This document shows, in pieces, positions 4,476 through 7,274 of a stretch of 9,444 bases of DNA. The stretch lies in IMG/VR virus record IMGVR_UViG_2695420714_000010; one strand, given 5' to 3'. This stretch comes from a virus. Its lineage: Duplodnaviria > Heunggongvirae > Uroviricota > Caudoviricetes. The first letter of the stretch is position 1. Every line of letters begins with the position of its first letter. The notes below the pieces were generated by a model. That model made no database searches. It was not told where the DNA came from and was given only the letters and a program-made list of their open reading frames with translations. A program made the translations under genes and the position numbers.

Positions 4476-7274
4476 ATGTGGGGAAGTGAAAACAAACAAA
4501 ATCTGGACGTACTGGATCCTGTGCAGTTGGTGCGTATCGAAGCGGTACACCGGGGGTTCCTTTACCAGCATCTTTACGCTGTAGGCTGCTTACTTTTGGC
4601 GCAGAGGGCAGCTATGGACTCAGTAACTGTCGAGCTTGATGAGGATATTGAGCTGAAATCCAAACAGGAACGTCTCTACATTCAGGTTAAAACCCGTTCA
4701 AAACCTATTATGCCCAACGATGTGTCGGGGGCTCTGGAGCGATTTGTAAAGCTCAGAAATGAGCATACTTCGGCAAACCGCGAAGGGGTGGCTTCTTTTG
4801 TGATTATTGTAAACCAGGCGCCTGGACCGCTGCTTCAGAAGATGATTGACGATAAAAAGCTTCCTTCTGATGTTCTTATTGTCTGGCCCCAGTCGACAGC
4901 TGGACGTCACCCGGCACTTCCGCCCGCATGGAGTACTCTGGCTGATGCGGCCACATGGTGTATCGCAGAAGCAGAAAAGCTGAAATTTTCACTATTGTCC
5001 CCAGAATCCTTGATTTGGAAGTTAGCAGGATTGGTTCAGCTTGCCGCCACCGGAGGCGATACCAATGGACAACATACGTTTTTCACGGAAGAACTTACTG
5101 AACTATTTGAACAGTTGATCGTTCAGCTACAGGACTTTCCTGCACCACCAGCACTGTACCGCCCACAGAACGAAGAACCTTCTCTCACATCTGGTGAGCG
5201 GATCCGTATCCTTTGTGGACTCTCAGGTGCAGGCAAGACAGCTTGGGCCGCACAGGCCGCATTACACTCCACTGCACTTTGTGCTTATTACGACACCGGT
5301 GATCTTCCCGGTCCAGCTCTGGCCAGTACGCTGGTGCGCGAGATGGCTGCTAGATTTACAGCCCGTGACCAAGACGGTTTGCGCAGGATTTTGCTCCCCG
5401 GTGCCAGTGGTTTTGAGGCTCTTAGGAGTTTTGATACCTACCTGAAAGAGCAGGGTACCACCTTGGTGCTGGTTCTGGATAACGCCCATCGTGTACCTGC
5501 GGAAAATCTACTGGATGTTCTGAATGCAACTACACATATTCGTTTTGTGCTGTTGTGCCAGCCTCACGAAAACGTTCGCGAACTGGAGGTCATGACGGGG
5601 CTACAGCGCGAGGGCCTGCAGGGATGGAATCTCGATACGGTAGCTGTCGTTGTAAACGATATCGGAGGATTTGCCACCGCTATGGGATACGAGCAGCTAC
5701 GGGCTTACACTGGTGGTCTTCCCCTGTATGTAGAGAGCGCCGCAAAAATCGCCGTTTCTGATTATGAGCGTAATGTCGATGCTCTGTGTGCTGAACTCCA
5801 GCAACAAACCCATACTGCGGAAACCGCCCAAGAAATTATTCTGTCACGTGTATTTCAGGGATTTGAATCACTACTTCAGAGCGCGCTGGCATTGTTCAGT
5901 CTCTCTGACGTAGGGCTGAGTCGCGAAGAGATTTCTACGCTCCTAATCAATTCGCTGAACATTTCACCAAGCAGTGCTGCTTCTTTAATTAGGAAAATGC
6001 GCGCTACTGGCACTATTGAAATTTATGGAAACCAGACCCTGAAGGTACATGATGCTGTCAGGGGGCTAGGACTGCAACATCTGGAACTGATGGATCAGGG
6101 TATATCGAACAAAGCGCTACTAGCGCTGAAAGACCTTTTAGTTGAAAGTCTTCATAATACCCGCAATACAAAACGGTTATCGTTGTTGACTCAACTTTAT
6201 ATTAAGCTCAATGATGTCACGACGTTGATCGAACTCTCAGGCCAAGAAATGTTTTATGAGATGGGCGTGACGGTCGACATTCTTGCAAGCTTGGAGCGTG
6301 CTGCAACATCGGACTTATTGGGACCTGTTCATAAATTCTGGGCATTGGATGGCCTTGTTTTCGTTGAGCTTAAAGACGGAATATCCGACCACATTGCTCA
6401 GAGGTTAAACATCATGGGAGCTTTACTTGCGGAGCACAAGTTCGGCTATCAAGAAGAGATGGCCTATGCAATGAAACGAATGTTATTTTCGGCAGAAAGC
6501 AATGATGCACGAGAAGTTCAAAAGCTGGCACAGGAAGTCCGCCCCCAACTCCCAGATGAAGAACATAAACGCATCTTTGACTACAACCATGCCATTGCAC
6601 TCTGGAGATTAAAAAAACTCAAGGATGCTGAAACATTAAGCTGTAATGTTATACAAGGGTACTATTCTTTATTTGGTATCACACCTGCTGATGTCATAGG
6701 AAAAAACGCCGACGCATTATGGAAAACTATTAATCATTCCGAAAATATGCAGGAACACTTTAAACATATGGCTGATGCTCTGGAGTTGCTGGCCAGAATT
6801 CGTGATGCGCAGGGAAAACTGTCACCATTACTGCGTATTCATTCGATGAAGTTCTACAATCTGGCCATGGCCCCGGAATCCATGGTCAGGGTGGGCCAAG
6901 ATCTGGCGGATGAGTTTGTTGCCATAAAGGATTACGACGGTGCCAAGGAAGTCATGGAGCAACATGTCCTGCCGGTTGTCAATGAGGCAGGTCTAGTACA
7001 TCGACTGATTCAGGTTCGAAGCCAATACGCAGTCATATTAGCACTATCGGGTCAGCATAAAGCAGCTGATGTCGAAATGCAGCGCCTTGCTCCCTATATC
7101 GAAGGCCTCACAGGTGTACAGCGTCAAGAAATCCAAAATCAATCAAATTACATCGTACAGCTTGCCCATAAAGCAGCAAAGACTAAATTAACTGAAGTTT
7201 TTGGTGCGGTCGGCCGGAATGAACAATGCCCCTGTGGCTCGGGAATAAAGTACAAAAAATGTCACGGTGCCTGA
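4476..7274 (+). CDS. large multidomain protein (932 aa): N-terminal PD-(D/E)xK-like nuclease region, STAND-type P-loop NTPase, winged helix with VHD motif, helical-repeat C-terminal region, terminal SEC-C zinc motif; candidate antiviral STAND (Avs-like) defence protein
   Basis: Single uninterrupted ORF with AAGGA about 10 nt upstream of the ATG. Walker A [11 protein letters not shown] (nt 5217-5240), Walker B [10 protein letters not shown] (nt 5463-5483), VHD motif KVHDAVRGL (nt 6042-6068), SEC-C [14 protein letters not shown] (nt 7227-7268), N-terminal [10 protein letters not shown]...YIQVK (nt 4632-4691). The gene is certain; the function is inferred from motifs only. Confidence 0.85.
   Translation: [932 protein letters not shown]

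Follow-up and report, generated by a model that had tools for sequence, protein, structure and literature searches.

Within a 9,444-nucleotide (nt) stretch of Caudoviricetes DNA (IMG/VR record IMGVR_UViG_2695420714_000010; "the window" below means this whole stretch), an open reading frame (ORF) at positions 4476 to 7274 encodes a 932-amino-acid (aa) protein, WP_000264572.1, that ends in a SEC-C motif, the short metal-binding sequence known from the C terminus of SecA. The remainder of the protein is laid out like the antiviral STAND (signal transduction ATPase with numerous domains) sensors, or Avs proteins, which are the prokaryotic counterparts of NLR immune receptors. The gene is 100% identical to positions 925315-928113 of NZ_CP148579. 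Its features, in window coordinates, are the following.

4476..7274, + strand: whole gene, 932 aa (WP_000264572.1), encoding a Cap4-type nuclease, a STAND-like NTPase, a tetratricopeptide repeat (TPR) sensor and SEC-C, as assigned from the ORF list, domain matches and an AlphaFold2 (AF2) model.
4518..5120, + strand: N-terminal Cap4/LmuA-like PD-(D/E)xK nuclease effector domain (aa 15-215).
4632..4691, + strand: predicted nuclease active-site stretch, E53-x-D55-x-D57-x-E59 ... Q70-V-K72; the residues are invariant, and a catalytic role is suggested by the PD-(D/E)xK pattern.
5193..6095, + strand: STAND-like NTPase module (aa 240-540), made up of a nucleotide-binding domain, a helical domain and a winged helix.
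5217..5240, + strand: Walker A loop, G248-LSGAGK-T255, with G248, G251, G253, K254 and T255 invariant.
5466..5483, + strand: Walker B strand ending in D335-N336 (at 5478-5483), both invariant in 76/76 members.
6096..7202, + strand: all-helical TPR-like sensor domain (aa 541-909), with its last helix at 880-909.
7203..7271, + strand: linker and SEC-C tail (aa 910-932), predicted to be flexible, with a short linker.
7215..7268, + strand: SEC-C/SecA-like metal-binding domain (aa 914-931), from the Pfam match, the PDB profile search and the SecA alignment.
7227..7268, + strand: ligand-bearing core C918, C920, C929 and H930, plus S922 and Y926, from direct reading and the description of SecA in 10.1101/613315.

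Read directly, the codons at 7227-7268 (TGC CCC TGT GGC TCG GGA ATA AAG TAC AAA AAA TGT CAC GGT) specify residues C918 to G931; a GCC codon and a TGA stop (7272-7274) follow, and the motif ends one residue short of the end of the protein. Pfam family PF02810 (SEC-C) matched residues 914-931 over positions 1 to 18 of its 19-position profile with 38.8 bits (E 8e-10), compared with a gathering score of 20.4 bits. The pattern CxCx8C[HC] occurred once in the six-frame translation of the window, compared with 0.035 occurrences expected from shuffles. The last 22 residues were identical to E. coli SecA 878-899 at 16 positions. By the spacing CXCX8CH, the predicted metal ligands are C918, C920, C929 and H930, while S922 and Y926 occupy the positions of SecA Ser-889 and Tyr-893; the SecA-like domain has been defined by CXCX8C[H/C] ligands together with an inward-pointing Ser-889 and Tyr-893 (10.1101/613315). 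A search of all PDB sequences with the family profile returned only SecA zinc-domain peptides (1sx0, 1ozb and 1tm6), full-length SecA tails, YchJ (9l6b) and 2i9w. NCBIfam gave nothing above threshold for the 932-aa protein and only subthreshold matches to SEC-C-bearing families. The motif is already flagged by database annotation, since RefSeq names WP_000264572.1 "SEC-C metal-binding domain-containing protein." By every sequence criterion that we applied, the tail belongs to the SEC-C family, and it is almost certainly a genuine SecA-type metal-binding domain, that is, a CXCX8CH knuckle predicted to hold Zn or Fe.

The tail was also found throughout the protein family. A terminal GRNxxCPCGSGxK[YF]K[KR]CHG was present in 108 of the 120 closest 90%-identity clusters, which range from 99% down to 49% identity and include members from Enterobacterales, Vibrio, Shewanella, Pseudomonas and Variovorax; the remaining 12 were mostly truncated. 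One relative with 39% identity still ended in the motif, and retention to ~39 to 40% identity was seen across Gamma-, Beta- and Alphaproteobacteria, Desulfobacterota and Sporomusa. In a neighbor-joining tree built from the core domains of 76 genome-derived members, the canonical tail occurred in every major clade, so we take the tail to be the ancestral state. Among 103 full-length representatives at 50% identity, 66 had the tail and 37 did not. When 113 distinct family tails were compared (the first cysteine being C0), C0, C2, S+4 and C+11 were present in 113/113, and position +8 was Y or F, again in all 113. The fourth ligand was H in 77 and C in 36; K+7, K+9 and N-3 were conserved at ≥97% and R-4 at 92%. 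The 20 residues just upstream (aa 894-913) were highly variable while the tail stayed conserved. As judged from these alignments, the tail, where present, is under strong purifying selection that extends to surface residues dispensable for metal binding.

This conservation pattern effectively refutes the view of the motif as a remnant without function or as a resemblance that arose by chance. The repeated loss of the tail from proteins that otherwise persist (described below) would agree with a remnant, but the Pfam E value of 8e-10, the retention to ~39 to 40% identity across distant taxa and the near-invariant nonligand residues beside a variable linker leave it with hardly any probability. 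The sequence-only reading had itself named the absence of Cys/His ligands from the homologous region of relatives as grounds for abandoning the motif; the relatives keep those ligands. In a Burkholderiales clade, we observed a variant knuckle, CPCGSGKKFKKCGC, in which the fourth ligand is apparently shifted by one residue, with C-G-C in place of C-H (...KKCGC; members L027, L028, L029, L031, L033, L034, L050, P0121 and P0269).

The protein that carries the tail was characterized from domain matches and structure prediction. At the N terminus, Pfam reported a Cap4-type double-stranded DNA endonuclease domain (PF14130) barely over threshold, and the profile match and the predicted fold together identify a Cap4-type nuclease. 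The middle of the protein matched the P-loop NTPase family AAA_22 and, weakly, AAA_16. An AF2 model built from 36 homologues (mean predicted local distance difference test score [pLDDT], 81) placed an alpha/beta nuclease at aa 15-215, a nucleotide-binding domain, helical domain and winged helix at 240-540, helical repeats at 541-909 and a low-confidence tail at 910-932. The sensor domain closes in a 30-residue helix, and pLDDT values over the last three 10-residue blocks were 60, 52 and 37. E53, D55, D57, E59, the Q70-x-K72 pair and the Walker A and Walker B residues showed no variation, either among the 36 aligned sequences or among the 76 genome-derived members. Where STAND proteins usually have a second acidic residue in Walker B, this one has Asn (N336). 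Such an Asp-Asn Walker B may make NTP hydrolysis slow or absent, with the module serving as a binding switch.

The protein thus has the tripartite Avs architecture of an N-terminal effector, a central NTPase and a C-terminal repeat sensor. Because the AF2 domain layout and the invariant nuclease and Walker residues agree, we assign the architecture to the Cap4-effector antiviral STAND type, and the host of the tail is probably an Avs-like defense protein. These results bear out the sequence-only reading in two respects: the motif is of the SecA type by its Pfam score, its PDB profile matches and its 16/22 identity with SecA, and the domain matches and AF2 model place it at the extreme C terminus of a nuclease-STAND-repeat protein. 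Promoter, terminator and composition scans around the gene were uninformative.

We use the term "Avs-like," and do not assign the protein to a named Avs, because none of the Avs models compared matches it and because its NTPase may fall in STAND proper or nearer to the sister ORC/Cdc6 AAA+ clade. The PADLOC v2 Avs models gave no match at E values up to 1, and no described Avs was matched among the PADLOC v2 models and PDB chains compared. Like Avs proteins with a Cap4 effector, such as SeAvs3 (8DGC) and SeAvs7, the protein has a tripartite layout encoded by a single gene, undergoes effector swapping and resides on mobile elements and in defense islands. It differs from them in having a sensor of ~370 aa rather than 1,000 aa or more and in its SEC-C tail, which is absent from the descriptions in the Avs papers searched; moreover, no solved Avs sequence matches it. 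The sequence-only reading had suggested that the tail may mark a distinct subfamily, and distinctness is supported by the lack of a matching PADLOC Avs model and by the silence of the searchable literature about SEC-C in Avs or STAND proteins. The PADLOC matches that were obtained were to LmuA, at the level of a domain, and to E2 and PDC-S12, through the tail motif only; the remainder of the E2, E1-E2 and PDC-S12 proteins is unrelated, and the likeness is confined to the ~20-residue motif. We rejected assignment to Lamassu: the LmuB SMC partner gene is missing from the window and its flanks, DUF977 and hokD being the adjoining genes, and outside the LmuA-like domain the protein is STAND-TPR.

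The family is large and resides in defense contexts. A scan of one genome per species found homologues in 230 species, with relatives in Gamma-, Beta- and Alphaproteobacteria, Desulfobacterota, Sporomusa and a cyanobacterial metagenome-assembled genome, and a search of every 50%-identity cluster representative found 392 clusters at E values up to 1e-30. About 10 copies of the gene lie on IMG/VR viral contigs. The V. cholerae homologue sits in an island with a Gabija-like OLD/UvrD pair, AbiH, PIN, AAA_13 and an integrase, a Pseudomonas homologue lies directly upstream of AbiH in metal-resistance islands, and others adjoin Lit-like, AbiJ, RES, P4-cII and Lamassu genes, which places the family on mobile elements and in defense islands. 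No neighbor was found to be conserved across the SEC-C-bearing members, and this fits a single-gene system. In one member (P0265; 893 aa), a ThsB-like TIR domain (PADLOC, 88.6 bits) stands in place of Cap4, and the protein aligns to family positions 219-930 with SEC-C kept. There, a different effector sits on the conserved chassis of NTPase and sensor; immune STANDs typically swap effectors in this way, and SEC-C stays with the sensor end.

The window itself belongs to a Qin/Rac-type lambdoid prophage of E. coli. Its gene order is DicF RNA, cI-like repressor, YdaS/YdaT, replication module, DUF977, the 932-aa gene, hok/sok, DUF968, RusA and Q. Features outside the 932-aa gene were located as follows.

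240-291, - strand: DicF antisense small RNA (Rfam, 76.7 bits).
3824-4232, + strand: DUF977 gene, split into overlapping ORFs at 3824-4099 and 3981-4232.
7383-7557, + strand: hok/sok type I toxin-antitoxin locus (Rfam sok, 110 bits).
About 7552-7707, + strand: hokD coding sequence.
7858-8157 and 8558-8857: 300-nt direct repeat with 86% identity, the copies being 700 nt apart.

DicF, together with dicB and ydfABC, which lie upstream in the matching genome, marks the Qin/Rac-type lambdoid prophage. The hok/sok locus begins ~110 nt downstream of the STAND gene, and the split in DUF977 agrees with the "frameshifted" pseudogene flag in RefSeq. Compared with NZ_CP148579, the window is colinear to position 8468, after which a segment holding a hypothetical protein and the 5' end of DUF968 is repeated at 94.7% identity; the direct-repeat region is a partial tandem duplication or a recombination junction that splits the DUF968 gene. 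The 932-aa gene was present in 16 of 5,426 complete E. coli genomes, and the flanking DUF977 was present in 2,342. Other prophages hold unrelated cargo or small ORFs in the interval between DUF977 and hokD, so we regard this interval as a variable cargo slot. In one E. coli genome (NZ_OZ546984.1, 361511-365562), the STAND gene is disrupted by an insertion of the IS3-family element ISEc52.

Relatives showed other additions at the same end of the protein. Three tail-less representatives (P0153, P0244 and P0245) have Lys/Arg-rich tails in the place of SEC-C. In many alpha- and betaproteobacterial members (for example, L037, L038, L041, L045 and L071), the linker ahead of SEC-C is longer and contains a proline motif of the PPPQW type; the tail-less clade terminates right behind this motif. 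A conserved 151-aa gene with an Sm/Hfq/WYL-like fold follows in convergent orientation, ~15 nt past the stop codon, at 15 of the 20 loci without a tail; the pairing was also seen in Ralstonia and Pseudomonas. A deep-branching member of 1,103 aa (P0145) carries a domain of the 151-aa type fused after an internal SEC-C (42% identity, E 2e-36). Because it represents one clade and one evolutionary event, the co-occurrence of this gene with tail loss is no proof of functional substitution.

The motif also recurs on other proteins of conflict type. A strict back-translated SEC-C pattern was found in 103 stretches of IMG/VR contigs, from which we picked representatives by hand. SEC-C stands at the C terminus of a 180-aa TIR protein (L114, L133, L156 and L188), of retropepsin-like proteins of ~190 aa (L096, L102, L119, L138, L164 and others), of a glycosyltransferase on a viral contig, of a 449-aa protein with an Rx4H motif that appears HEPN-like by eye (L147, L179 and L185) and of several proteins of 500 to 870 aa with no Pfam domain (including L104, L145 and L148, of 777 to 869 aa). 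In a group of 525 to 580 aa (L089, L091, L132, L151, L154, L159 and L163), it is N-terminal. The PADLOC profiles for E2 and E1-E2 (PDLC00833, 00865, 00870, 00871 and 00872) and for PDC-S12 (PDLC04917) contain a SEC-C segment at ~165-216, and all SEC-C tails tested matched that segment. We take the names E2 and E1-E2 to follow those of the CBASS ubiquitin-conjugating accessory proteins. The SEC-C segment in these profiles could yield spurious "E2" calls in defense annotation.

Literature searches combining SEC-C with STAND, Avs, NLR-like, CBASS, antiphage or conflict systems returned only two Lactococcus papers, both on Rugutis. This single-gene antiphage system of a Lactococcus plasmid is the sole validated defense protein with a noted SEC-C in the searchable literature; unlike the protein described here, it has the motif at its N terminus, is 359 aa long, adopts a novel fold and lacks both nuclease and NTPase. 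Nowhere did the searchable literature, including a 2026 STAND census and the Aravind conflict-system papers, mention SEC-C in connection with Avs or STAND proteins, and the accession WP_000264572 was in no searchable paper. One apparent match, to "SEC-coupled" multiangle light scattering, was discarded. Relative to that literature, what is new is the occurrence of SEC-C on an immune-type STAND protein, how large and old the family is, its C-terminal variants and the recurrence of SEC-C on defense-type proteins.

What the tail may do can be approached through better-known SEC-C proteins. The SecA domain binds SecB and the ribosome, and partner binding lifts SecA autoinhibition. YecA/AscA, which apart from its tail is unrelated to SecA, binds SecB (dissociation constant, about 150 nM) and 70S ribosomes (1:1), and both interactions need the C-terminal domain. 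Some methionine aminopeptidases, enzymes that act on ribosomes, carry the motif as well. The YecA and YchJ tails have 73% identity to the SecA domain (10.1101/613315), equal to the value found here. With YecA/AscA and YchJ, our protein shares the use of the motif as a portable tail on otherwise unrelated proteins, but those two are small, serve housekeeping or stress functions (one as a chaperone, the other as a redox transcription factor) and are not immune proteins of mobile elements. The sequence-only reading had attributed contacts with SecB and/or the ribosome to the SEC-C motifs of SecA, YecA and YchJ; this is correct for SecA and YecA/AscA but goes beyond what is established for YchJ, which a recent description presents as a DNA-binding regulator that senses redox state. 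With the SecA C-terminal domain (PDB 1SX0/1SX1 and 1TM6; H. influenzae SecA peptide on SecB, 1OZB), the tail has in common the Pfam family, the ligand spacing, the Ser and the aromatic residue, as well as the GRN lead-in, a Lys-rich face and a location at the extreme C terminus on a poorly ordered end. The two differ in that SecA is a translocation ATPase, unrelated to the nuclease-NTPase-TPR host here, in that the SecA linker is long and flexible and that of our protein much shorter, and in that the position of SecA K890 is hydrophobic (Ile).

These comparisons suggest the following model. The TPR sensor, the NTPase switch and the Cap4-type nuclease are combined in one putative antiviral protein, carried as cargo of the prophage slot. 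By analogy with Avs3 and Avs7, a phage protein would bind the TPR domain, the NTPase would oligomerize and the Cap4 nuclease, once assembled, would degrade DNA. Beyond the final helix of the sensor, the SEC-C tail would protrude on a flexible end. As an accessory docking tag, it would hold the resting sensor on a polyanionic host partner of high abundance, and this docking would localize the sensor or gate its activation. Given the near-identical tail, the selected surface residues and the exposed flexible end, docking on a partner of the SecA/YecA type is the simplest reading. We consider this the best explanation as a whole, namely, an ancestral SecA-type domain on an Avs-like host with the tail as a docking tag, and give it a probability of roughly 0.4. 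The narrower proposal that the tail docks on the ribosome and/or SecB is tentative and draws on the analogy with SecA and YecA. The role suggested by the sequence-only reading, a tether to the ribosome or a chaperone or else a zinc-dependent regulatory module, is likewise putative. Within it, a polyanionic, RNA-rich partner such as the ribosome is more likely than SecB itself, because SEC-C occurs in Lactococcus and on viral contigs and because members of the family have Lys/Arg-rich or Sm/WYL-like additions. A polyanion-binding role fits the Lys/Arg-rich tails and the Sm/Hfq/WYL-like partner of the relatives. Avs sensors can recruit translation factors, since SeAvs7 incorporates EF-Tu as a cofactor (PMC13581612).

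Several observations weigh against a docking tag. To our knowledge, SecB is not expected in Lactococcus or for many of the viral contigs, and if that expectation is right, the SEC-C tails of Lactococcus and viral-contig proteins mean that SecB is not the general partner. The linker is only 4 to 8 residues long in the E. coli clade, and the gammaproteobacterial clade has a hydrophobic residue (I, L or V) where SecA has K890. YchJ, also a SEC-C protein, is reported to be a DNA-binding redox regulator. AF2 cannot represent metal, and its model neither favors a docked tail nor speaks against one. Finally, there have been three or more losses of the tail, affecting Pseudomonas kielensis/kitaguniensis, one Methylophilaceae member and a mainly alphaproteobacterial clade of 18 sampled species; ~36% of full-length representatives are without it, and tail-less members retain every predicted nuclease and Walker residue. 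Because these lineages keep their catalytic residues, the tail appears to be accessory and not required for core function.

The losses and the unplaced tail also bear on the idea that the tail is an intramolecular or intersubunit latch, which would autoinhibit the resting NTPase or nuclease or would stabilize the active oligomer. There is precedent for such a latch in the autoinhibitory C-terminal tail of SecA and in Avs2-trypsin, which autoactivates when its sensor and C-terminal domain are deleted. However, AF2 gave the tail low confidence and no docked position, and the lineages that lost the tail survive with no evident compensation at their catalytic residues. Moreover, the occurrence of the motif on many unrelated small proteins (TIR, retropepsin-like and glycosyltransferase) argues for a common external partner. 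We regard a latch as quite unlikely.

The composition of the tail and the nature of its replacements raise the alternative that it is a basic zinc knuckle that binds DNA or RNA directly and so holds the nuclease on its substrate, senses a nucleic acid cue or keeps the protein on the nucleoid. The tail is strongly basic, with R-4, K+7, K+9 and K/R+10 conserved; some relatives have Lys/Arg-rich tails instead; the Sm/Hfq/WYL-like addition belongs to a fold class that binds RNA or single-stranded DNA; the SEC-C protein YchJ binds DNA; and the effector is a DNA nuclease domain. On the other hand, a positively charged surface has been held responsible for DNA binding by YchJ, and dimerization through Cys149 for its redox switch, not specifically the SEC-C knuckle, and direct partner data for this domain type concern SecB and ribosomes only. 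In solved Avs tetramers, the nuclease domains meet centrally, away from the sensor C termini (PMC13581612). We regard direct nucleic acid binding as somewhat unlikely.

The same Cys149 result bears on the possibility that the tail is a metal or redox sensor, in which loss of Fe or Zn, or oxidation under infection stress, would alter the activity of the protein. SecA-like domains bind one Zn ion or, preferentially, one Fe ion, with Fe bound in vivo through the conserved Ser, and the authors of that work suggest that the domains could regulate contact with the ribosome under stress; Ser is conserved in 113/113 family tails, and YchJ is a redox-sensing regulator. The YchJ switch, however, maps to Cys149 dimerization and not to the knuckle ligands, nothing indicates that metal status is disturbed by phage infection on the timescale in question, and the characterized STAND sensors are triggered by phage proteins. 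We regard a sensor of this kind as very unlikely.

How STAND sensors are positioned and silenced in the cell is largely unexplained, and the need of SeAvs7 for EF-Tu suggests that the translation machinery can have a part in sensing. The large, widespread and uncharacterized family described here offers a handle on this problem, namely, a tail of ~20 residues with known biochemistry (docking on SecB and the ribosome and binding of Zn or Fe), and its tail-less, Lys/Arg-tailed and partner-gene variants are natural comparisons. If the tail proved dispensable, the family would still be a new Avs-like system in a common E. coli prophage hotspot. A bolder extension of the docking model, which we consider speculative and rather improbable, is that SEC-C is a ribosome-address tag that parks the receptor near the exit tunnel, at the site of the SecA domain, to sense structural or replication proteins of the phage during their synthesis, and that it is a reusable module of many defense effectors. 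If that were true, the TIR-SEC-C, retropepsin-SEC-C, PADLOC E2 and PDC-S12 proteins and Rugutis would be effectors sharing a "go to the ribosome" module, and tethering directed at RNA would be provided in other ways by the Lys/Arg-rich tails and the 151-aa partner of Sm/WYL-like type. Should SEC-C prove to be a common localization or regulation tag on defense proteins, it would represent a new organizing principle for them.

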